A DNA stretch of 48,235 nt from Candidatus Bathyarchaeota archaeon (GTDB lineage: Archaea; Thermoproteota; Bathyarchaeia; Bathyarchaeales; Bathycorpusculaceae), in assembly GCA_963775465.1 (NCBI GenBank), contig CAVZIW010000014.1:1-48235 (forward strand), written 5' to 3'. Shown in pieces: positions 1 to 36,153 of the stretch. The notes under the pieces were generated by a model, which was not told where the DNA came from, made no database searches, and saw only the letters and a list, made by a program, of their open reading frames with translations. Position numbers and translations under genes: made by a program. Position 1 is the stretch's first letter. The number at the start of each line of letters is the position of its first letter.

Positions 1-73
1 GGCCGCTGGGATTTGAACCCAGGATCGCATGCGCCCCAGGCATGTATCCTAATCCATGCTAGACGACGGCCCC
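1..73 (-). tRNA. tRNA-Pro(GGG), 3' end cut by the window edge
   Basis: Reverse complement GGGGCCG TC GTCTAGCATGGATTAGGAT A CATGC-CTGGGGC-GCATG CGATC CTGGG-TTCAAAT-CCCAG CGGCC: full cloverleaf, anticodon GGG, no intron. Confidence 0.9.
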
Positions 74-16690: not shown

Positions 16691-17822
16691 TTATGGGATT
16701 ATTTCGCAGCCGTTGTACTTTAGGTAGTCAAAATCTTGCAAACTTATTTTTTTCTGACGAATTAAGCTTTGAATCCTTGGTATCTCTGCTTTGATTGTCT
16801 CGATGAGTTGCTCGACAGTGTAGCAGACTTTTTTGTAAGCATCATCATTCCACCTCTTAACTATGTTAGTGTAGAGACATCGGCCACCGCAGACCTTTAG
16901 AAGTTTGCAGTCAATGCATGGCTTTTGGTTCACAAAAATTTTAGGCATCTGCAAGGGATTTGCATCTTTTATGTGTCCAAGATAGTGTTTTTTAATGCCC
17001 CACATGGTTGGGCAAGGCACAATGTAGCCGTCTGTTTGGATAGCATAGTTAATCCAGCCGCCGCCGCAACGCATAAGACAATTATTCTCGTCATTAAGAA
17101 GTGACTCAGCAATGCCTAGCAAAGGGTAAATCTTTAGCACGAACTCCTTCTTTCTCCATTTTATCAACCCAAAATTGGGCAAGACGTTTAACCCCTGGAA
17201 TGTAGCTGGTTTTTGTCCATTGTTCAAAGTTGCGTCTTTGGAAATCGTTGCCCCAGAATCCAGCGTTAAGTTGCCAATGTATTGAGGTAAAAGAGATTTC
17301 TTCGTTGGTTATGAGCCATTTTACTTGTTTTTCGATGTCAGTTAGCTCCATTACAGTCATTCGAGCAATTATTTCTCCTTCGAAACCGTTTTTCTTTATG
17401 AGTTTCAAGTTGTCTATTACTTTTTGAAACGTGCCGCTGCCACGGTAATAGTCAGTTAACGTTTCTTCGCCATCAATAGATACAAGGATTGTGTGGAAAC
17501 GGTTGACGTATTTTGGCTCTATCTTGTCAAGAAGTAATCCGTTTGTTTGGATCATGAAATGTTTGGGTTTGACTTTATTCATGATTTCTCTTAATTTATC
17601 TGCTTGAAGTAAAGGTTCTCCACCGTAAAAAGTCAAGACGCAATCAGAATCTTTGCCACAGAACTTTTTCAGAAGCTTTACATTATAGTTGAGATTGCGT
17701 GGTAAGTTGTAATCAACATCTATGTCGTCTCCGAAGTCGTCGTCAAAATCTTCTAGGCTTTCGCCAAAGCAGTACTTGCATTGCAGGTTGCAGTCGCTTG
17801 TGAGAATCACATGGAAGAACAT
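16691..17822 (-). pseudogene. Radical SAM/SPASM protein (AF0577 / TIGR04084-like) split by a +1 frameshift near 17141
   Basis: CNLQCKYC, FYGGEPLL, QTNG, SIDG in the 5' ORF; CGGG, DGYIVPC, CIDC..VCGGRC..C SPASM in the 3' ORF. Removing one base in GGAGTTCGTG gives ...MEKEGVVLKIYPLL. Confidence 0.8.
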
Positions 17823-18030: not shown

Positions 18031-18273
18031 TTGGCGGGTTTGTCTAAGAATCAAAAGAAAATAATTGCGATGTTGGAGATAAAACCTGACATGACCACTA
18101 AGGAAATCGCTGAGATGATTTTTGGCAGAATTGTCGAGTACAAATCAAAAGAATATGCTTCAGTGTATCGAAGTCTTATCTCTATAGAAAAGCAGGGTTT
18201 CATCCAGCGTGTACAGGTTCAACTTCGTTGGCGAAAGTCCGACAAGATGCTGAAATCAAAAACGGTTGCCTAA
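18031..18273 (+). CDS. Small winged-helix DNA-binding protein
   Basis: LSKNQKKII..L, MTTKEIAEMIFG, YASVYRSL..IEKQGFI. Confidence 0.75.
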   Translation: MAGLSKNQKKIIAMLEIKPDMTTKEIAEMIFGRIVEYKSKEYASVYRSLISIEKQGFIQRVQVQLRWRKSDKMLKSKTVA

Positions 18274-18335: not shown

Positions 18336-19676
18336 TCAATAGTATTTTTCTGCTAATTCCCGCGCTTTTTTATCCTCAGGGCTCTCTTGAGTTTCTCCAG
18401 TTGACTCTTCGTCTTTGTCATCGGTTCTGTTTCTTTTTTGTTTCTTTGCATTTTCTTTTTCAACGATTTTCTTTGCCTTTTCAACGTAACTAGTGAGATC
18501 TCTATCCTTCATAGTCTTCTCTGGCAGTGTCTCAGGTGCGTAGATCAAAGGTAGAACAGCGATAAATAGGAAGAAACTCGCAATAGAAAATGCCGAAGCC
18601 GGATTTTCTCCAATAATCTTAGCTGAAGGTCCCATTAATATAGGTACAAAACCAGCTAAGAGATAGGGTAGTCCTCCTAAAACATAGTATTTTTCCCTTT
18701 GAAAGCCTTCCGAAAGGTCCCCCCAAAGTGTCATGAAAAACACAGCTGCAAACATTCCCCAAGCTGCGCCATCTAAGCCTATGTAAATGTAATGTGAAAT
18801 GGCGTTGTCAGAGAATAAGCTAAGTATTGCGTACTCTATGCCAAAGAAAATAAAGCCTGTTATGACGACTCGCTTTCTACCAATACGATCTGCTAATGTT
18901 CCGCCAACGATTGCAAAGATGCCTGAAATTGCGAAGGTAATGATTCCTGCTATAGATGCAAAATCTCCAAGTATAAATTCAGTGATTGGGGATTCAGTAA
19001 AGTTAACAAGCGAAAACATTATCCATGGTACTAAATACAGGATTAGATCGCGTCGTCCCAGGATTCGTTTATACTTTTCAGAAGGTTTTGAGGTACTCGG
19101 CTCGTATTTTGCTTTGGTTAGTGCGAGAAAGAAGATAAGGCCAAGGGTTCTCCAAAGAGTGAGCAATCCGGATCCGAATAAGGGTGCCGTGGTTTCACCA
19201 AGTGTTAGTATATAGCTCCATGTTAGAACGCCGATTAGAACACTAAATCCTGTCGTGAACCAAATGATCCCACCTAGCATACCTCTTTTTGCTATTCGTG
19301 TTGAATTGGCGAAGAAGGATAGAGCGGATGGTAATCCTATTCCGACTGATGCGCCTAAGAGTATAAACAGTATCAAATTTGTGGATACGTTATTGTTTGG
19401 AATAGTTGATAAGGGGACTGTCATGATTGCTCCAAAAAGCATCCATAAAGCGAGACCATTTTTTCTTGCTCGAGGTAAGAGCCATGCTCCAAGGAAAGCG
19501 GTTGAAGCTATTGTGGCGAAGAAAGCTCCGTATAATGAGATTCTTGTGAAATATGTCAGGTTGTTTAGTGGGTCTGTGAATAGGAAAAAAATTAGGGTGT
19601 ACCAGATGAGGCTGTTGGCTACTATTATTAGTGCGGGCGCGAATTCTGGCCATTCGATTCCTTTAGGGATGTTCAT
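18336..19676 (-). CDS. MFS transporter
   Basis: About 12 TM helices; MFS motif A GGTLADRIGRKR; C-terminal APETLPE. Confidence 0.88.
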   Translation of the reverse strand: MNIPKGIEWPEFAPALIIVANSLIWYTLIFFLFTDPLNNLTYFTRISLYGAFFATIASTAFLGAWLLPRARKNGLALWMLFGAIMTVPLSTIPNNNVSTNLILFILLGASVGIGLPSALSFFANSTRIAKRGMLGGIIWFTTGFSVLIGVLTWSYILTLGETTAPLFGSGLLTLWRTLGLIFFLALTKAKYEPSTSKPSEKYKRILGRRDLILYLVPWIMFSLVNFTESPITEFILGDFASIAGIITFAISGIFAIVGGTLADRIGRKRVVITGFIFFGIEYAILSLFSDNAISHYIYIGLDGAAWGMFAAVFFMTLWGDLSEGFQREKYYVLGGLPYLLAGFVPILMGPSAKIIGENPASAFSIASFFLFIAVLPLIYAPETLPEKTMKDRDLTSYVEKAKKIVEKENAKKQKRNRTDDKDEESTGETQESPEDKKARELAEKYY

Positions 19677-19793
19677 TAGACCGGCCTATTTGTATCTGGT
19701 CTATTGATGATTAATCGGGTTTAACATATAACGTTTATTAATTTACCATACTGTATTTCTGTTCTACAGAAAATTTTAAGTAGTAGTTATGTT

Positions 19794-19862
19794 CTACACA
19801 TCTACTTGAGGAAAGAAAGGTGAAGGCAAAAAGAACCATTCCAGTACGGACTCTACCTCCAT
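19794..19862 (-). CDS. Putative 22-aa Trp-containing peptide (16 aa if CTG start); not in ORF track
   Basis: ATG 5 nt after the synthase stop; MEVESVLEWFFLPSPFFPQVDV*. Internal GGAGGT lies 10 nt before an in-frame CTG. Confidence 0.45.
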   Translation of the reverse strand: MEVESVLEWFFLPSPFFPQVDV

Positions 19863-19867
19863 AAGTA

Positions 19868-20857
19868 CTACAAATCCTCTAACATGGAAGATACCCACAG
19901 TTCAAGTTGATTTCGTAATAATACCTTACCATGTAGTACACGCAACAAGCAAATTGCCTGTGTGGAAAAATCTTCCATCTCTTTTTTTAGTTTTTTGACA
20001 GATTCTGTTTCAAAGACTGTTTCAATTAGTTTTTCTGCATCTTTCTTTGTTATTTTTGGTTTTGCTAAAATCTCATCGATTTGGTTTTTTGTGTTGCAAT
20101 TTTGCATTGCGATAATTATTGGGATAGGTAGGCGATCGATGTTTACTTTTTGCCGCAGCTCTTCTGCTTCAAAGACATCGATAAATTCCTCCCTTAAAGT
20201 GGTTAGGATGCCAAGTATTCTGCCGTATTGGCCCAGTGCTTTTATCTGATCTTCTGTTGCGCCGCCAAAAAGGGCTCCGAGACTCATATCAGCTTCGATG
20301 CTGGCAGCTTTCTTTTTAACAAAATCCAGATATTGTTCTGGTTTGCCTGTCACTTTTCCTTTAAATCTCAGTTCTAGTGCGTGTGCGTTGCCTACTTCAA
20401 ACAAGTTTGTTTTCAGAATATCTATGCTTTTTTGTATTTTGTTTGGTGCAATTTCGGCAGCTGATTTAACTAGAAGAGTAAAACCCTGTATTAGAAATGC
20501 GTTTCCCAAAAGAAGTGTTAGCTCTTGACCGTACTTGCCGTAGACAGTTGGTTGATTGTGTTTTGTTTCTGATTGGTCTATTATGTCGTCGTGTAGATCA
20601 AAGGCGGCTGCGACCATGGCTATGCTGGCTTGTATTGGTACGGAGTCATCTGGGTTTCCGCCTGAAGCTTCACATGCCAGAGAAAACAGGCCTGCATGGG
20701 TGAAATCGTACCAGTTGGCGATATAATGTTCCAGAGCTTCACGGAGTTTGGGGTAATCCATTTTTATGTTATTCATCGATGTTTTTGCTGATTCGAGTCC
20801 TTTGTTGCCCCTTAACGCGAGGTCAGCCATTAAGATTTTGGTGTTTTCGGATGGCAT
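19868..20857 (-). CDS. Polyprenyl synthetase-fold protein with degenerate active-site motifs (ComQ-like)
   Basis: First Asp-rich motif DLHDDIID intact; second motif reads REEFID; RRG loop replaced by TKHN; no GKRxR motif; GQ motif replaced by NAH. Confidence 0.85.
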   Translation of the reverse strand: MPSENTKILMADLALRGNKGLESAKTSMNNIKMDYPKLREALEHYIANWYDFTHAGLFSLACEASGGNPDDSVPIQASIAMVAAAFDLHDDIIDQSETKHNQPTVYGKYGQELTLLLGNAFLIQGFTLLVKSAAEIAPNKIQKSIDILKTNLFEVGNAHALELRFKGKVTGKPEQYLDFVKKKAASIEADMSLGALFGGATEDQIKALGQYGRILGILTTLREEFIDVFEAEELRQKVNIDRLPIPIIIAMQNCNTKNQIDEILAKPKITKKDAEKLIETVFETESVKKLKKEMEDFSTQAICLLRVLHGKVLLRNQLELWVSSMLEDL

Positions 20858-24492: not shown

Positions 24493-24570
24493 GGGGCCGT
24501 CGGCTAGTTTGGTCCAGGCTTGTAGCCTCGGGCGCTATAGACCCCGGTTCAAATCCGGGCGGCCCCACCA
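24493..24570 (+). tRNA. tRNA-Pro(CGG) with encoded CCA
   Basis: GGGGCCG..GTAGC-CTCGGGC-GCTAT..CCCGG-TTCAAAT-CCGGG CGGCCCC A CCA; full cloverleaf. Confidence 0.95.
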
Positions 24571-29306: not shown

Positions 29307-29708
29307 ATGGTGGAGCAAAAGTTAAAGGTAACTTTGCTTACAGGTCGCACGATAGAGCAAGGCGTTGGCAAGGAAAAAGGCAAAGCTTCTAAAGAATACT
29401 TTAATGCCTGTTCAATGTGCTACATGGATGCAGACGACATGAAGAATCTTGGCGTCAAGAATAACACTAACATTTTGGTAACAACCCCTGATGGCTCAGT
29501 TGTTCTAAGGGCAGTTAAGTACCCCCGTTCCGCAACTCCAGGGTTGATTTACATTCCTTACGGTCCTTGGGCAAACGCTATTTGCAGCAACAAGACCACA
29601 AGCATAGGTATGCCGTCGTTTAAGGGCACTCCCGCTGAAGTGCAACCTGCTCCAGCCGAAAAAGTTCTCACAATGGAAGAGCTTCTAAAAAGTGAATTTG
29701 GAAGATAG
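29307..29708 (+). CDS. fwdD: Formylmethanofuran dehydrogenase subunit D
   Basis: LLTGRTIEQG, YIPYGPWAN, GMPSFKG. Confidence 0.93.
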   Translation: MVEQKLKVTLLTGRTIEQGVGKEKGKASKEYFNACSMCYMDADDMKNLGVKNNTNILVTTPDGSVVLRAVKYPRSATPGLIYIPYGPWANAICSNKTTSIGMPSFKGTPAEVQPAPAEKVLTMEELLKSEFGR

Positions 29709-29712
29709 AAAA

Positions 29713-31182
29713 ATGTCAATCATTAAATCTGTAACCTGTCCAATCTGCGGCTGTCTCTGCGACGACATTGAATTGACAGTGGAAAAAAATGAAGTTGTTA
29801 AAGTTAGAAACGGCTGCGCAATATGTGAATCTAAATTCATCGGGTATAAGGGTCATCATCGTGTAAAGACGCCGCTCATGCGGAAAGATGGCAAACTGGT
29901 TCCCGTTTCTATGGATGAGGCTGTTCATGCCGCCGCAGAAATTCTTGCGAACGCTAATTATCCCATTCTTTATGGTTGGAGTTCAACCAGCTCTGAAGCT
30001 CAACGTGTCGGTGTTGAGTTAACAGAAGAAGTCGGAGGAATTATGGATAACACCGCTGTAGTTTGTCATGGACCCTCTATTCTTGGTGTTCAAGAGGTTG
30101 GCATTCCAACTTGTACATTGGGGCAGATTAGGCATCGCGCAGATTTGATTATTTACTGGGGCTGTGACCCATGGAGTGCGCACCCAAGGCACCTAGAACG
30201 ATATACTAGCTTCACGGAGGGTCGTTTCGAGAATAGCGAATGGAAAGCGTTCATGCAGAAACTCAAAGCTCAGGCGGGTCAAAAGAAACTTGAAAGCGCA
30301 GCCAGAATAGAAATAGGTTCCACGCATCCAAAACCCCAAACTTGCACTGTACCCGGAATGCCTCAATCTATGAATAAAAGTGGACGTAAACTCATTGTTG
30401 TCGATGTAAGGAAAACCATGTCTGCTGAAATGGCGGATTACTTCATTCAAGTTCAACCAAACAAAGACTACGAGCTAATGCAGGCGTTGCGTGTTCTGGT
30501 TAATGATGGTGAACTTGACGTAGATAGCGTTGCAGGTGTTCCAGTTGAATACCTAAAAGACGTTGCAGATGTATTAGTCAACTGTGAGTTTGGTGTCATC
30601 TTCTTTGGGATGGGTTTGACTCAAACTGCCGGTAAATTCCGTAACATCGAAATCGCAATTCAACTAGTTCGGGACCTCAACTCACGCACAAAATTCACAA
30701 TCATGCCCATGAGAGGGCACTTTAACGTTACTGGTGCTAACGTAGTTTCTGCTTGGCAAAGCGGCTACCCATACGGCGTTGACTTTTCTCTGGGTTACCC
30801 GCGATACAATCCGGGTGAAACAACCTGCATGGATGTGCTTCTGCGAGAAGAAAACGATGCGTCTCTGATTATTGCATCGGACCCTGGGGCGAACTTCCCA
30901 AAGAAAGCCGTTGAGAACATGATTAAACATCCACTCATCGTCATCGACCCACACATGAACGCAACTTCAATGTTAGCTGACATAGTGTTTCCATCTGCGT
31001 TCGTCGGTATAGAAGTTGAAGGTACTGCATACCGAATGGATCATGTTCCCCTTCCGTTAAAGAAAGTAGTTGAACCGCCCAAAGGCGTCTTGTCTGATGA
31101 GGAAATTCTTACAAAAATCCTTGAAGAAGTCAAAGTAATCAAATCATCATCCAAAAAGTCAACTAAAAAGGTTGTATCTTAA
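29713..31182 (+). CDS. fwdB: Formylmethanofuran dehydrogenase subunit B (Cys form)
   Basis: CPICGCLCDD, VCHGPS, CTLGQ..RAD, HPRH, MPMRGHFNV, GTAYRMD. Start at ATG 29713. Confidence 0.95.
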   Translation: MSIIKSVTCPICGCLCDDIELTVEKNEVVKVRNGCAICESKFIGYKGHHRVKTPLMRKDGKLVPVSMDEAVHAAAEILANANYPILYGWSSTSSEAQRVGVELTEEVGGIMDNTAVVCHGPSILGVQEVGIPTCTLGQIRHRADLIIYWGCDPWSAHPRHLERYTSFTEGRFENSEWKAFMQKLKAQAGQKKLESAARIEIGSTHPKPQTCTVPGMPQSMNKSGRKLIVVDVRKTMSAEMADYFIQVQPNKDYELMQALRVLVNDGELDVDSVAGVPVEYLKDVADVLVNCEFGVIFFGMGLTQTAGKFRNIEIAIQLVRDLNSRTKFTIMPMRGHFNVTGANVVSAWQSGYPYGVDFSLGYPRYNPGETTCMDVLLREENDASLIIASDPGANFPKKAVENMIKHPLIVIDPHMNATSMLADIVFPSAFVGIEVEGTAYRMDHVPLPLKKVVEPPKGVLSDEEILTKILEEVKVIKSSSKKSTKKVVS

Positions 31183-31184
31183 AA

Positions 31185-32876
31185 ATGACTGAAGTAATCA
31201 TAAAAAACGGTTTCGTTTTCGATCCTATAAATGGGGTTAAAGGCGAAAAGATGGATATATCCATCAAAAATGGGAAAATTGTTCAAAAAGTAACTCACAA
31301 CGCTAAAGTGATAGATGCAACCGGCTTGACAGTAATGCCCGGAGGCGTCGACATCCACACTCACATTGCGGGCGGAGAAGTTAACACTGGTAGAATGATA
31401 CGACCTGAAGATCATGTTAAAGATACCGTGACCAAAACAGCAATGACTCGTTCAGGAACCGGCTATTCCATCCCTTCCACTTTTGTTACTGGGTACCGCT
31501 ACTCACAGATGGGTTACACAACTGTTATGAACCCATCAATGGCTCCTCTGGAAGCAAAACACACCCATGAAGAACTAAATGACATCCCCCTTGTAGACAA
31601 AGCTACTTATCCATTAGTTGGCGACTGGTGGTTTGTCCTTGAATACCTCAGAAAAGGTGACTTGGAAGAGTGCGCTCGTCATGTCGCATGGATGATGGAT
31701 ATTACCAAAGGCTACGCCATAAAAATTGTCAACCCAGGTGGATTAGAATCCTGGGGTTTTGGACGCAACGTCCACAGTATAGACGACCAGGTTCCTAACT
31801 TCTGCATAACTCCCAGAGAAATCATGGTTGGGTTAGCTAAAGTTAACGAAATGCTCAACTTGCCACACTCTATTCATCTGCATACAAACAACTTGGGGTT
31901 GCCTGGTAACTATTCAACTACATTGGAAACCATGAAGGCGCTTGAAAAAGTCCCCTATCATGGGAAACCAGTTGGGCACATTACTCATTTACAGTTTAGC
32001 AGCTTCGGCGGAGACGGTTGGGGCAACTTCAAATCAGCGGCAGAAGAAATATCAAGTTACATTAACGCCCACAACCACTTGACATTTGACATGGGGCAAA
32101 TTATATTCACCGACACGACGACTATGACTGCTGATGGTCCCTTCGAGTTTACGCTCTACCAGCTAAGTGGTCACAAATGGGTTAACAGCGACGTAGAAAC
32201 TGAGACTAGCGGCGGAATTATCCCATTCCACTATAAGAAAAACAACGCTGTTAACGCCACTCAATGGTCAATTGGTTTGGAACTTGCATTGCTAGTTAAA
32301 GATCCATGGAAAATGATGATGACAACCGACCACCCCAATGCAGGTCCCTTCTTTAGTTACCCAAGAATCCTCGCATGGCTAACGAGCAAAAATGCACGAA
32401 TGGCAACACTCAAAAATTGCAACAAGAAAGCCCAGAAAAAGAGCTTGTTGCCCTCCATCGACAGAGAAATCACGCTATACGAACTTGCAATCATGACCCG
32501 CGCCGCGCAAGCCAAAGCGTTAGGCCTCAAACACAAAGGACACCTAGGTGTTGGCGCGGATGCTGATGTTGCTATCTTTAATATTAACCCTGAAACAACC
32601 GACATAGCCCTCAAATACAAGACAGCCCGCAAAGCCTTCAAGAATGCAGCATACACAATAAAAGACGGCCAAATCGTTGTTAAAGATGGCGAAGTGGTAG
32701 GGCACGCAGACGGCAGAACCATGTGGCTAAACGTTAAGACAGCTGAGCCTTGCCGGATTGACGAGCAGATGAAAAGCAAATTCCATCAATACTGGACTGT
32801 TGACTACGATAATTATCCAGTATCAGATCACTATGTCAAGGTTAAGGACCCCATAACTATCAAAGCGAGCGTCTAG
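31185..32876 (+). CDS. fwdA: Formylmethanofuran dehydrogenase subunit A
   Basis: GGVDIHTHIAG, KIVNPGG, HLHTNNLG, MTADGP, TTDHPNAGPF. Confidence 0.96.
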   Translation: MTEVIIKNGFVFDPINGVKGEKMDISIKNGKIVQKVTHNAKVIDATGLTVMPGGVDIHTHIAGGEVNTGRMIRPEDHVKDTVTKTAMTRSGTGYSIPSTFVTGYRYSQMGYTTVMNPSMAPLEAKHTHEELNDIPLVDKATYPLVGDWWFVLEYLRKGDLEECARHVAWMMDITKGYAIKIVNPGGLESWGFGRNVHSIDDQVPNFCITPREIMVGLAKVNEMLNLPHSIHLHTNNLGLPGNYSTTLETMKALEKVPYHGKPVGHITHLQFSSFGGDGWGNFKSAAEEISSYINAHNHLTFDMGQIIFTDTTTMTADGPFEFTLYQLSGHKWVNSDVETETSGGIIPFHYKKNNAVNATQWSIGLELALLVKDPWKMMMTTDHPNAGPFFSYPRILAWLTSKNARMATLKNCNKKAQKKSLLPSIDREITLYELAIMTRAAQAKALGLKHKGHLGVGADADVAIFNINPETTDIALKYKTARKAFKNAAYTIKDGQIVVKDGEVVGHADGRTMWLNVKTAEPCRIDEQMKSKFHQYWTVDYDNYPVSDHYVKVKDPITIKASV

Positions 32877-32878
32877 AA

Positions 32879-33694
32879 ATGATAGTCCTCTCTCCACTTA
32901 GAAAATTCACCTATCCAATCACAGCAGAATGCATAAACCCCGATGTTTTCCAGGGCAAAGACACCTCAGAAATAGCTAAATTGCCAGTATTTGAAGGAAA
33001 CAAACCAAAAGCACTTAGTGACCTTTTCAAAGTTGAAAAAGGCAATTTGGACACCCCGACAATAACCATTAATGGAGACGTGAGTGAAGTCCGCAGAATA
33101 GGCATTGGCATGAAAAATGGTGAGATAATTATCAACGGCAACGTTGGTATGCATCTTGGCGAGAAGATGGGGGGTGGAAAAATTACTGTTAACGGGAACG
33201 CTAGTCAATGGGCAGGCTGCTCAATGAAGAAAGGCACCATTGAAATTCATGGTAACGCAGGCGACTACTTAGCTTCCCCATACCGCGGCAGTACCGATGG
33301 CATGAAGGGCGGCAAAATCGTTGTCGACGGCGATGTTGGTGCTGATTCAGGCTGTTACTTGCAAGGCGGATTAATCAAAATAAAAGGCAACAATACAGGT
33401 CAATTTCTCGGTTTCCATATGAGCAAAGGAACAATTCACGTTGAAAAAAACGCTTCTACAAGGCTGGGCGCAAACATGACTGGTGGAAAAATTATTGTTT
33501 CAGGTACCTTGGAAGAATTAATGCCGAGTTTCACAATTGACAGCGTAAAAGCTAAAGTCAAAGTCGACGAAACCGAATCTGCAGCTGGACCATTCTATGT
33601 GTTTTTGGGCGATCTTGCCGAGAAAGGCACTGGAAAAATTTTTGCCTCCAAGGCCAATAATCCGCATCTAAAATCATATGAAAAATACCTTTAG
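32879..33694 (+). CDS. fwdC: Formylmethanofuran dehydrogenase subunit C
   Basis: AECINPD, EGNK...L.DLF, repeated GxxMxGGxIxVxG beta-helix, GDLAE.G.G. Confidence 0.95.
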   Translation: MIVLSPLRKFTYPITAECINPDVFQGKDTSEIAKLPVFEGNKPKALSDLFKVEKGNLDTPTITINGDVSEVRRIGIGMKNGEIIINGNVGMHLGEKMGGGKITVNGNASQWAGCSMKKGTIEIHGNAGDYLASPYRGSTDGMKGGKIVVDGDVGADSGCYLQGGLIKIKGNNTGQFLGFHMSKGTIHVEKNASTRLGANMTGGKIIVSGTLEELMPSFTIDSVKAKVKVDETESAAGPFYVFLGDLAEKGTGKIFASKANNPHLKSYEKYL

Positions 33695-33757
33695 ATTCGC
33701 TTGTTTTTCAAGCTAAAGCCCTATATTTTAACTTCCAATAATTTAAGATAGTAATAG

Positions 33758-34555
33758 GTGTCGCCGATGGTTAGTCAAGTTTACATAGAAAAGATCGACT
33801 TATCAACAGGCAAAAAGAACAAAATTGTCGACTACATTGCGGAAGAAATACCTCTGCAACTTTTTGTCAACTCAACTTTTTGGGCAACTATTTTGTGTAC
33901 TCCATCTAACCTTAAAGAACTTGCTGTGGGGCACCTGCTGAGCGAAGGCATTATAAAATCTATCCAGGAAATAGAAGATATAATCCTTAAAGAAAAAGAG
34001 AGTACTTGCATAGTTAAACTCGATCCAAAAGTCAATGTTGAGAGTCGAATAAGCATTTCGAGACTTCACACTCGCGTCATTGCATCTGCATGTGGCAGTG
34101 GCTCACCTTATCAATATAAAGGCAAAACACCGTTTGTTGACTCCAAATTGAAGGTTAAAGCGCAAGTTATTTTTGAGAGTGTTAATCAGCTTAACTTCAA
34201 AGCTGAAGGCTTTAGGCAAACAGGTGGTTTGCATGTAGCGGCAATCTACAAGGCTGACGGCTCGATGTTAGCTTTGGCGGAGGACGTTGGCAGACACAAC
34301 GCTGTGGACAAAGTAATCGGAATGACCGCTTTGAATAAGGTTGATTTTGCTGAATGCTTTTTGACTTTATCTGGACGCATGTCTGGTGATGTGGCTTTCA
34401 AAGCTGCAAAGGTCGGTTTACCAATAATAGCTTCTTTAGCGGCAGCGCTTTCTTCAGGAATCGCAACAGCTGAAGAATCAAACGTTACTTTAGCAGGTTT
34501 TGTACGTGGAAAACGATTAAATGTTTACACATCGCCTGAACGGATAATTATTTGA
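33758..34555 (+). CDS. fdhD: Formate dehydrogenase accessory sulfurtransferase FdhD
   Basis: EEIPL, CTP...ELAVG.L.SEG, SACG, QTGGLHVA, EDVGRHNAVDK, SGR, GFVRG. Confidence 0.93.
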   Translation: MSPMVSQVYIEKIDLSTGKKNKIVDYIAEEIPLQLFVNSTFWATILCTPSNLKELAVGHLLSEGIIKSIQEIEDIILKEKESTCIVKLDPKVNVESRISISRLHTRVIASACGSGSPYQYKGKTPFVDSKLKVKAQVIFESVNQLNFKAEGFRQTGGLHVAAIYKADGSMLALAEDVGRHNAVDKVIGMTALNKVDFAECFLTLSGRMSGDVAFKAAKVGLPIIASLAAALSSGIATAEESNVTLAGFVRGKRLNVYTSPERIII

Positions 34556-35557
34556 TTTGTTTTTGGCACCATGATGCGTCGGATTTTGCTCTTTCTCCAA
34601 GAAGATAGCAATAGTTTTGATCGAAAATTTTTGCTTCTGCGTTATAGTTTTTTGCGGCTTTCAGAAAAGCATCTTTATTTTGTTTCGTTGATGCTGGTAG
34701 GCTTTTGGCTTGGTGCTCACGACTCAAAGCAGCCCAAAAATGAAGTTCCTTTCTCTCCAATCTATCCGCGCAACTTGCAAACATTTCCGATGAATCCAAA
34801 AATTCTTTTTTGCCTCTTTTTTTAGAAGCTTCCAATAGTTGTGGGATCTCTTCCAGAGGGGGCTCTCCTAGGTTTAACCGTAAGTTTGCAGCCATTGAAC
34901 CTTGTCCTTGGCGAGGTTTTAGCAGTTCTTAAATCTTGTTGAGAATTAATATTAACAAAGCTTTTCAATTTGGGATCCAACATTTTGATATCTCCAAGCG
35001 GCGAAACAAACAATGTTCTTAACGTACCTCTGATGATGTCGTCGGGATGCGAGCGTCCTAAATGGCAGAGTAAATCGGTGATTCTAAAGCAGACTTTTCT
35101 GGAAAGAACCATGAGTAACGTTTCAAGTCTGCCGTTTGGCCACATCGGAACAGCAACATAGGAATCTTCTATTTTGGTAAAAAGATATTCAGCTACTTTT
35201 TGGTCAAGCATAGGTACATCGGCGGGAACTGTTAGATAATAATCTGCTTTGACAGTTTTTAGTCCAGTATAAATCGCAATCAACGGTCCGCTTAAACCAT
35301 TAATTTTCAGATCCGTAGCTAAACTTACCTTTGGAGCATCAAAAGCTGCCAAAACTTTACCATATTCTATTTTGCGTGCCTCTTCATTTACAACAACGAT
35401 GACCTCATCTACAACCTCACTTATGCTTTCAACAGCTGAGAACTAGGAGAGGTTTACCCCATAACTCTGCGAGCGCTTTATCTTGCCACTTACCGTTTGT
35501 TGTCTGAAACCTTTGTCCTTTTCCCCCAGCAAGAACGATTGCAGCTCGCTTATTCAT
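34548..35557 (-). pseudogene. mobA: MobA-like Moco guanylyltransferase with a helical C-terminal extension; two +1 frameshifts (near 35440 and 34929)
   Basis: ATG 35557 MNKRAAIVLAGGKGQRF..DKALAELWGKPLL, then GPL..IYTGL, PADVP, SFVNINS..DL, then a roughly 120-aa helical tail. Confidence 0.78.
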
Positions 35558-35598
35558 CTAATAACCTTGCATAGGTAAACCACCGCGGTTTATCTAAT

Positions 35599-36153
35599 TT
35601 ACTTGACCAAATCTTTTCTTTTTGTCACTAATAGTTTTTTGACCAAATCAAGAAGCTGGGCTCTTTCATCAGGCAAATTTATGAAAGGGATGCTACTTGT
35701 TTTTTGCTTGTTTTTTGCAATCAACCCAGTTATTGCCAAGATTGGAGGAACGCTATTGCTGAGCGTTTTATCTAGATCTTCATTTGTCTTAGCTGTAATA
35801 ATTTTTGTTATATCTGGTCGTTTAGAAATGTAACCGTGAAAACCCTCGATGAATATAATGTCAAGTAACTCATTCTCTAAATGTTTTATTACCTTATCCA
35901 AATTTTCAATTGAAGCTTTAGTTTTTTCTATAATCGCAATTTCGTCAGGTGAAACAGCGACAGTAATCTTGCTGCCTGCTTTGCTGAAGCGCCAGGTGTT
36001 TGTGCCTTCTTTGTCGATAGTGAAGTTTTCTCGGTGAATATGTTTGATTGCGCCAACTTTGTAGCCCATTTCTGTTAGCCTGGAAATTAAGAATTCTACT
36101 GTGGTGGTTTTTCCTGAACCGCTTATTCCCACTGCAGCGATTAACACAACCAT
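35599..36153 (-). CDS. mobB: Molybdopterin-guanine dinucleotide biosynthesis protein B
   Basis: GISGSGKTT, VGAIKHIH..FTIDKEGTNTWRF..AG, DIIFIEGF. Confidence 0.93.
   Translation of the reverse strand: MVVLIAAVGISGSGKTTTVEFLISRLTEMGYKVGAIKHIHRENFTIDKEGTNTWRFSKAGSKITVAVSPDEIAIIEKTKASIENLDKVIKHLENELLDIIFIEGFHGYISKRPDITKIITAKTNEDLDKTLSNSVPPILAITGLIAKNKQKTSSIPFINLPDERAQLLDLVKKLLVTKRKDLVK

Follow-up and report, generated by a model that had tools for sequence, protein, structure and literature searches.

The question raised by this locus is whether an archaeal enzyme with the fold of a trans-isoprenyl diphosphate synthase (trans-IDS) hands its prenyl group to a small peptide encoded beside it, in the manner of the bacterial ComQ/ComX pair, as had been proposed in a preliminary description of the same DNA. 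The stretch analyzed, hereafter the window, comprises 48,235 nucleotides of a Candidatus Bathyarchaeota archaeon, and the genes under study lie between positions 18336 and 20857. The locus is a conserved cassette of one Bathyarchaeia lineage, composed of the enzyme gene, a peptide gene convergent with it, and a gene for a transporter of the major facilitator superfamily (MFS) divergent from the peptide gene. The best explanation that can be given is that of an archaeal trans-IDS-like cassette for peptide prenylation and export, a tentative reading to which we give slightly less than even confidence; the cassette may be the first archaeal relative of the bacterial prenylated-peptide systems.

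The enzyme gene (19868..20857, minus strand) encodes a trans-IDS-fold protein of 329 amino acids, a paralogue derived from geranylgeranyl diphosphate synthase (GGPPS), with a PF00348 match of 91.7 bits for a Pfam cut-off of 27. The NCBIfam synthase equivalogs gave scores far under their cut-offs (275–600), the two best being IdsA (109.1 bits, cut-off 468) and GGPP_syn (84.7 bits, cut-off 500). With a maximum near 109 bits, the protein is to be taken as a divergent member of the fold and not as any nameable synthase. A ComQ model was absent among its 17 NCBIfam matches, and the nearest solved structure was the GGPPS of P. horikoshii (1wy0, E 1e-27).

The motifs were compared in alignments to 1wy0 and to the canonical GGPPS of the same genome, a separate gene (G000:C3:323842-324936, the same as L001:1333-2427) in which all the classical motifs are present (GGKRWRP, DDIED, RRGK, GQ, KTG and DDILD). 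A 364-aa gene upstream, whose end the canonical gene overlaps, resembles by eye only a type-2 isomerase of isopentenyl diphosphate (IPP). The window enzyme retains the first Asp-rich motif as DLHDDIID, with its DDIID core. At the place of the GGKRxRP of canonical GGPPS it reads THAGLFS (THxGLF in the family); at the RR position it reads KH (K-H/N/Y in the family), the second Arg of RRG being thus replaced; at the place of GQxxD it reads GNAHALE; and the GK that follows the second motif is replaced, E-E-L-x-Q-R being found there. The C-terminus is acidic (...MLEDL), and the E-D-L end is shared by almost all the family members.

Residue columns were counted over 191 distinct full-length members of the family. 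Nine residues (D87, D90, D91, D94, K99, E162, K183, D227 and E233, in family columns) were present in all 191, and H54 in 181. The second motif is EExxD or DDxxD, with column 223 being E in 139 members and D in 44, and column 224 being E in 137 and D in 54; the DDxxD form occurs in about one quarter of the family. Position 222, directly before this motif, is Arg in 189 members and Lys in 2, and the window enzyme reads REEFID. The donor-side catalytic residues are thus all kept, namely D90, D91, D94, K99, K183 and an [ED][ED]xxD second motif with D227.

In the structures of farnesyl diphosphate synthase, the allylic diphosphate is held via Mg2+ by the first motif, the first Arg/Lys of RRG, the Lys of KT and the second motif, while the IPP diphosphate is held by the basic residues of GGKRxR, the second Arg of RRG and the GK after the second motif. 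Since the positions that hold the IPP phosphates are replaced family-wide while the donor-side residues are invariant, the sequences make chain elongation with IPP very unlikely for this enzyme. The preliminary description had reported the 329-aa frame with DLHDDIID, had listed the substitutions at GKRxR, RRG and GQ, and had proposed that IPP elongation was lost; the profile match and the alignments agree with it on these points. It had also taken REEFID as a lost second motif, of which the sequence stands but not the interpretation, as the exchange between EExxD and DDxxD is conservative and D227 is found in 191 of 191 members.

A protein search returned 797 relatives of the enzyme, of which the best 120 were 48–92% identical to it, and the few that carry an organism name were from Bathyarchaeia or Bathyarchaeota. 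Of 301 class genomes with a completeness of 80% or more, 90 had the family at E up to 1e-40. It was concentrated in a few taxonomic families, f1 (60 of 77 genomes), f5 (15 of 16) and f4 (5 of 8), and was not found at that threshold in f2 (0/22), f13 (0/11) or f30 (0/44). This distribution indicates a lineage-specific accessory and not a core enzyme of lipid synthesis. A search for fused forms of 577–2000 aa, weak as evidence, yielded none at E up to 1e-30. Several genomes carry tandem duplicates of the enzyme gene (L032:4001-6250; L055:10-1714; G120; G071), and in L094 two complete enzyme-MFS cassettes stand side by side.

Concerning the peptide partner, 79 related loci were retrieved and the 150 nt past each enzyme stop were translated in three frames. 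The preliminary description had put forward a 22-aa open reading frame (ORF) with a single Trp, MEVESVLEWFFLPSPFFPQVDV (19794-19862, minus strand), which begins 5 nt after the enzyme stop. A W..P.P.F peptide recurred in only one of the 79 loci (L003, enzyme 92% identical), and in L018 (enzyme 73% identical) there are two stop codons in its frame. The DNA after the enzyme stop is clearly conserved, with the conserved bases falling in different forward frames from locus to locus. The explanation is on the opposite strand, where a micro-ORF lies in front of the enzyme stop, and the 22-aa ORF is its antisense shadow. The 22-aa ORF was accordingly rejected as a gene on three grounds: its occurrence in 1/79 loci, the stops in L018, and its being the complement of the micro-ORF plus the ribosome site of the latter. 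Likewise, the GGAGGT that had been suggested to be a Shine-Dalgarno site is present, but it is the reverse complement of two Pro codons of the micro-ORF and loses that role. So, the expectation of a small peptide partner was sound, a constant one being found on the opposite strand, while the Trp peptide that had been named was not the right one.

The micro-ORF of the window (19820..19864, plus strand, unannotated) starts with GTG, encodes the Lys-rich 14-aa peptide MKAKRTIPVRTLPP, a candidate partner or substrate of the enzyme, and ends in TAA. It is convergent with the enzyme gene, and 3 nt separate the two stop codons. A Shine-Dalgarno-like sequence, GAGGAAAG (19808..19815, plus strand), places its GAGG core 8 nt 5′ of the start; a 4-mer of this kind at −16 to −4 accompanies 56 of 65 distinct micro-ORFs. 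The layout common to the loci is a GAGG-type site, a start codon, a run rich in Lys and Arg, an invariant P-[VIM]-R, three to eight mostly hydrophobic or aromatic residues, and a stop a few bases from that of the enzyme. With a strict rule, such a micro-ORF was recognized in 65/79 loci, with a Shine-Dalgarno-like site in 57 of the 65, the controls giving 1/79 on the other strand, 4/3950 in shuffled sequences and 0/75 in the regions upstream of the enzyme. A relaxed rule added seven variants (72/79), in which motifs of the P-K, P-R or L-V-R type replace P-[VIM]-R. The strict rule matched only twice in the 2.4-Mb genome, one match being the window locus, so the micro-ORF is effectively single-copy.

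The way in which the micro-ORFs vary is that of a translated sequence. At the conserved P-x-R core, Pro is written with each of its four codons and Arg with each of its six. Lengths range between 10 and 20 codons and change by whole codons. Outside the core, the synonymous share of the changed codons was 195/578 in frame, to be compared with 69/695 and 57/637 in the shifted frames, counts that are descriptive and carry no formal test, as the compared pairs are related. From this codon pattern and the kept start, ribosome site, stop and frame, it is concluded at the level of sequence that the micro-ORF is a real gene under coding selection. Lys and Arg account for 298 of 495 residues of the N-terminal parts; in the tails, F, Y, L, W or I stands two residues past the Arg in 43/64, and the next residue is Pro in 25 and Gly in 12. 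Four 20-aa micro-ORFs gave no Pfam match. A tiny ribosomal protein was considered as an identity for the micro-ORF and found unsupported, eL41 (PF05162) being unmatched in the genome at E up to 10.

Upstream of the micro-ORF there are promoter-like elements. Two 9-bp boxes, TGTTCTACA (19760-19768 and 19790-19798, span 19760..19798, plus strand), lie around an A/T-rich TATA-like stretch, and they are two of only three TGTWSWACA matches in the 48-kb window. Two or more boxes were found in 30/79 loci and one box in 40/79, to be compared with 1/731 random 230-nt windows, and the spacing was 24–30 nt in 29 of the 30 loci with at least two. These boxes are putatively the regulated promoter/operator of the micro-ORF, divergent from the promoter of the MFS gene. 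For the latter, GTTATATG (19725..19732, minus strand) stands at the place of a conserved GTTTTATC element and is a putative TATA box, with the MFS start codon 49 nt downstream of its last base. The GTTTTATC element is kept across loci, those devoid of micro-ORF included.

A second kind of cassette is informative about the first. Some genomes contain additional, weaker copies of the enzyme gene, of which 14 were retrieved. In six of these 14 paralogue loci (L090, L091, L092, L100, L102 and L103), an ORF of 73–87 aa, whose product has a tail with Trp, occurs on the opposite strand just past the enzyme gene, in the same position as the micro-ORF; it lies between the enzyme and MFS genes in all six but L090, which has no MFS gene downstream. 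A profile search for this 73-aa family found it in 9/301 genomes, with seven of the nine loci between a paralogue enzyme and an MFS gene, one at a contig end and one without enzyme. The family, made of at least 143 sequence clusters, all unnamed, gave no Pfam match at E up to 0.01, and 22 members gave no relevant NCBIfam match at E up to 5. Aligned over 22 rows, the peptides are well conserved up to about residue 65; beyond it come an invariant K68 and P70, with Trp at position 69 in 21 rows and Tyr in the other one, and a hypervariable end of three residues. Such a makeup, with its constant body, fixed Trp-Pro and variable tail, would be expected of the precursor of a modified peptide, and the tails of the micro-ORFs show a weaker version of the same pattern. 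A leader of the Nif11 or nitrile hydratase leader peptide (NHLP) type, suggested by a resemblance by eye, was discarded, since no curated leader model matched.

The paralogue enzymes (type 2) are only 22–25% identical to the window enzyme in the multiple alignment (24–28% in BLAST local alignments). They keep the first motif and the equivalent of K99, have a degenerate second motif (KDFHVSVN), and show Lys or Asn at the position before it. As 1wy0 is the closest solved structure to both enzyme types, their sequences suggest that both were recruited from an archaeal synthase. The 73-aa cassettes also carry a 315-aa gene for a protein similar to the catalytic core of class-II aminoacyl-tRNA synthetases (L092:526-1473, plus strand; also L103-L110), on the strand opposite to the MFS gene and overlapping the 3′ end of the latter. 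Its product matches PF00152, and its best NCBIfam scores, for asparaginyl-tRNA synthetase (218.6 bits) and asparagine synthetase A (155.5 bits), are all under cut-off; in the pathway it might activate an amino acid or add one.

The binding of peptide to enzyme was modeled with the type-2 pair. Co-folding of a type-2 enzyme with its 73-aa peptide gave an interface score (ipSAE) of 0.70 (runs 0.65, 0.78 and 0.70), the best of three controls giving 0.01. The ipSAE mark had been reached in a benchmark by 116/157 solved complexes and 2/215 mismatched pairs; these counts hold only roughly here, because the alignments, of 8 and 22 rows, were self-made. The runs shared at least 73% of their contacts, and the predicted local confidence (pLDDT) of the partner was at least 77. 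We know of no solved complex of the trans-IDS enzyme-peptide kind, so it seems unlikely that the program merely reproduced a known structure. The confident interface comprises residues 4–32 and 55–62 of the peptide, with no confident placement of its Trp end, and residues 99–104, 228–235, 272–288 and 330–338 of the enzyme. These enzyme stretches are the loop past the first motif, the segment past the second one, a helix late in the chain and the C-terminal end, and together they make up the active-site rim. The model thus supports the binding of the 73-aa peptide to its type-2 enzyme beside the mouth of the active site. By alignment, this interface maps to window residues 98–103, 229–235, 271–287 and 326–329, where the window family has conserved acidic positions (E230, E232, E233, E275, E279, E283 and the EDL end). 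By charge match, the micro-peptide is inferred to dock at the same acidic site.

Concerning the transporter, the MFS gene (18336-19676, minus strand, 446 aa) encodes a putative exporter with a PF07690 match of 45.3 bits for a gathering threshold of 33.4. In 72/74 loci with enough sequence, an MFS homologue comes first or second among the ORFs downstream of the enzyme, and it comes third in L044 and L065, in accordance with the MFS gene and the synteny announced in the preliminary description. A gene for a radical S-adenosylmethionine (SAM)/SPASM protein, TIGR04084, is an accessory. It is next on the same strand in 43/59 loci; in the window it is split (16691..17822, minus strand) into two overlapping frames (17106-17822 and 16691-17227) that score 198.4 and 99.2 bits, to be compared with 304.5 and 312.5 bits for intact relatives and a cut-off of 225. 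The frame changes around 17121–17140, and a near-identical environmental contig is one base short at 17141; an error of assembly or a difference between strains may account for the split, and the 92% related L003 has an intact gene of 376 aa. In the complete genomes of L057 and L058, TIGR04084 is absent (best score 41 bits) and the enzyme, the micro-ORF and the MFS gene are all kept. The radical SAM gene being dispensable, the constant core is enzyme, micro-ORF and MFS. After TIGR04084 itself, the best named radical SAM matches are peptide maturases (PapB, 113.5 bits; nif11-type, 88 bits), and nothing relevant in print was found for TIGR04084 or AF0577. In the genome of L046, the TIGR04084 gene is unlinked to the cassette and adjoins ORFs that look by eye stomatin/SPFH-like, which gives no peptide or MFS clue.

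With these elements, the mechanism can be sketched in conditional terms. The enzyme would bind an allylic prenyl diphosphate via Mg2+ and ionize it; a small peptide, docked by its leader, would replace IPP as the acceptor; in the window, the polybasic N-terminal part of MKAKRTIPVRTLPP would rest on the acidic surface formed by E230, E232, E233, E275, E279, E283 and the EDL end; the MFS protein would export the lipidated peptide, which might act as a signal, a membrane-active peptide or an anchor; and the radical SAM enzyme and a reductase, where present, would tailor the product. A more specific version supposes that Bathyarchaeia possess lipopeptide cassettes in which 10–20-aa polybasic precursors are prenylated on a non-Trp residue or a terminus, that the MFS protein exports a signal or a membrane-active product, and that the 73-aa K-W-P type is the ancestral, Trp-using form; it must be considered rather improbable.

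Several observations weigh against prenylation of the micro-peptide. No micro-ORF was found at the usual place in seven of the 79 loci (L015, L023, L027, L028, L032, L062 and L071). The window peptide MKAKRTIPVRTLPP contains no Trp, Tyr, Phe or Cys; only 24/65 micro-ORFs contain Trp, and in 19/65 the tail has no aromatic residue. A precursor of 10–20 aa is unusually short, and the cassette has no protease gene. The micro-ORF is a gene predicted from its sequence. The co-fold is a prediction for the paralogue pair, with small self-made alignments, and not for the window pair. All the characterized trans-IDS-like peptide prenyltransferases target Trp, and the ComQ-kind enzymes share a Gln just before the second motif that aids indole recognition (PMC13290415); the enzymes of the present family differ from ComQ, PalQ and ChrPC in having Arg at that position in 189/191 members. 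The loci devoid of micro-ORF include an AT-rich clade (L015, L023, L027 and L028) that may represent cassette decay or poor assemblies. Three of its loci are long enough to judge: L015 carries frameshifts in both its MFS gene and its radical SAM gene, the radical SAM gene of L023 is truncated, and L027 is intact.

The rival explanation that survives best is a function in isoprenoid or lipid tailoring with efflux, in which the prenyl group would be transferred to, or cyclized on, a membrane lipid or a small molecule. Tailoring of the product would fall to the reductase and the radical SAM enzyme, the MFS protein would flip or export it, and the micro-ORF would encode an unrelated small protein, regulatory or membrane-active, sharing only the divergent promoter. 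Several points speak in its favor. Genes of the geranylgeranyl-reductase family TIGR02032 occur in the fetched flanks of 11/79 loci, inside or beside the cassette and with scores of 179.9 and 185.1 for a cut-off of 158.8, and PadR regulators, an ATP-binding cassette (ABC) ATPase and an amidohydrolase are encoded upstream in many loci; the reductase genes, like the PadR and ABC genes, fit such a role as well. According to a preprint, archaeal lipid-modifying radical SAM genes occur together with PF07690 transporters in 56% of neighborhoods (10.1101/2025.10.20.683597), and many micro-ORFs have no obvious prenyl acceptor. However, lipid tailoring leaves unexplained that an opposite-strand peptide gene occupies the same place in enzyme families only 22–25% identical, as well as the predicted docking of the 73-aa peptide at the mouth of the active site. 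Moreover, the reductase is missing in 68/79 loci, and the radical SAM gene in two complete genomes that have the other three genes. Considering all this, lipid tailoring with efflux seems rather unlikely, though it deserves to be taken seriously.

It could also be that the intergenic element is not translated and represents promoter/operator DNA or a small RNA with an incidental open frame. Part of the element is clearly promoter-like. The contigs of one RNA library cover 17245-17282 (less than 90% alike), 19184-19317 and 20576-20843, the latter two on parts of the MFS and enzyme genes; none lies over the micro-ORF, which shows neither expression nor silence. Yet the loci preserve the start, the Shine-Dalgarno-like site, the stop and the frame in spite of variation at third positions and in the Arg codon family, the length changes by whole codons (10–20 aa), and Rfam searches of the whole window and of 19500-20000 gave no family for the element. 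This codon pattern makes a purely non-coding element very unlikely.

It is, if anything, slightly less probable that the enzyme is a non-catalytic or regulatory subunit paired with the canonical GGPPS, as small subunits are in heteromeric prenyl synthases, with unrelated neighbors. A canonical GGPPS is indeed encoded elsewhere in the genome, and the paralogue has lost the IPP-side residues. Known non-catalytic subunits of prenyl synthases, though, have lost the metal-binding carboxylates and the donor-side lysines, and here these residues are invariant in 191/191 members, which makes such a subunit unlikely, and the cassette partners are conserved. Finally, prenylation by the enzyme of a ComX-like Trp peptide, MEVESVLEWFFLPSPFFPQVDV, encoded on its own strand has practically nothing left to recommend it beyond an ORF with one Trp 5 nt past the stop, as that ORF recurs in 1/79 loci, meets two in-frame stops in L018, finds the conserved bases of the other loci spread over all three forward frames, and is fully explained as the complement of a coding-selected micro-ORF.

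Other neighbors of the cassette include a small winged-helix protein of 80 aa (18031..18273, plus strand), a possible local regulator encoded between the MFS and radical SAM genes, with weak TrmB and FUR matches under the cut-offs and homologues near the cassette in L003, L004, L005, L017, L034 and L060. In L006, a flanking 427-aa ORF is a histidine kinase according to Pfam, this being the only such ORF scanned among counterparts of 402–427 aa; no kinase gene was found beside the cassette in the window, so a ComP/ComA-type partner is unsupported. A pair of genes for a ParA/MinD-like ATPase and a TrmB-like winged-helix protein adjoins the micro-ORF cassettes of L041, L046, L051, L052 and L079 and is also found beside 73-aa cassettes (coordinates L041:6409-7590, minus strand, and L092:4163-5382, plus strand). 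Three cassette contigs (L009, L018 and L063) are filed as bacterial metagenome-assembled genomes (Caldiserica, Cytophagales and Anaerolineales, respectively) and are probably mis-binned.

Elsewhere in the window, a block at 29307-36153 contains pieces of a molybdopterin oxidoreductase, an amidohydrolase, and FdhD, MobA-like and MobB genes, with the Mo-binding and dinucleotide-binding domains in separate neighboring ORFs. A tRNA gene is cut by the window start (1-73, minus strand), and a tRNA-Pro (CGG) lies at 24493-24570 (plus strand).

If the peptide-prenylation reading is true, the cassette would be the first system for trans-IDS-like prenylation of peptides to be found outside bacteria, with an independent origin from an archaeal GGPPS, and a non-Trp acceptor would be a new chemistry for trans-IDS-like transferases. 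The Bathyarchaeia lineage is uncultured and globally abundant in sediment and soil, and to our knowledge no chemical signaling or peptide natural product is known from it; the variable tails of the peptides suggest lineage-specific products. The analysis also reveals an unannotated class of genes, made of polybasic ORFs of 10–20 codons and an unnamed 73-aa family, each with a testable partner enzyme. The minimum length used by the usual gene callers exceeds 10–20 codons.

Concerning the comparison with known systems, literature searches on ComQ/ComX prenylation in archaea, and on archaeal peptides made by ribosomes and modified after translation (RiPPs) in connection with Bathyarchaeota, returned no such system. 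Peptide-derived cofactor and RiPP systems with radical SAM/SPASM maturases are represented by PqqA/PqqE, MftA/MftC and the ranthipeptides. The present cassette resembles them in having a very small precursor gene beside a SPASM radical SAM enzyme. It differs in that the radical SAM gene is optional, that no RiPP recognition element or PqqD-type partner was found, and that the micro-ORF has no conserved Cys, Glu-Tyr or Val-Tyr target motif. A 2025 article on archaeal RiPPs (PMC12144867) contains no occurrence of "prenyl", "Bathyarchae" or "radical SAM". A family described in a preprint on archaeal terpene synthases (10.1101/2024.01.29.577750) was also considered, and it is a different one, since its proteins are described there as having no Pfam domains.

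The trans-IDS-like peptide prenyltransferases are ComQ, the P domain of ChrPC and PalQ, and Ord1 acts on free Trp (PMC13290415). Section 2.4 of that review and its passages mentioning archaea name no archaeal trans-IDS-like example. The likeness to ComQ/ComX lies in the trans-IDS fold, the intact first motif, the probable loss of IPP elongation and an adjoining peptide gene with a variable C-terminal end, to which the 73-aa type alone adds an almost invariant Trp near the C-terminus. The differences are that the peptide gene converges here on the enzyme gene from the opposite strand, while ComX is downstream on the same strand; that no conserved ComP/ComA-type pair is nearby and an MFS gene is a fixed partner; that the window peptide is a polybasic 14-mer devoid of Trp; that an EExxD second motif persists; and that, among solved structures, the archaeal GGPPS 1wy0 is a nearer match to the enzymes than any bacterial prenyltransferase.

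As to PalQ, the P domain of ChrPC and Ord1, they belong to the same superfamily and work on a like principle, with the donor bound at the first motif and a peptide or Trp acceptor taken up on what was the IPP side. PalQ prefers a terminal Trp, which is reminiscent of the K-W-P near the end of the 73-aa peptides. All the characterized members act on Trp, whereas many micro-ORFs have none. Lastly, the archaeal type-I GGPPS (1wy0; L001:1333-2427) is the best sequence match and shares the fold, the length, the first motif, the lysine of KT and an acidic second motif with the enzymes described here, which differ from it in the replacement of GGKRxR, the second Arg of RRG, GQ and the GK after the second motif, and in possessing a conserved gene neighborhood of their own.

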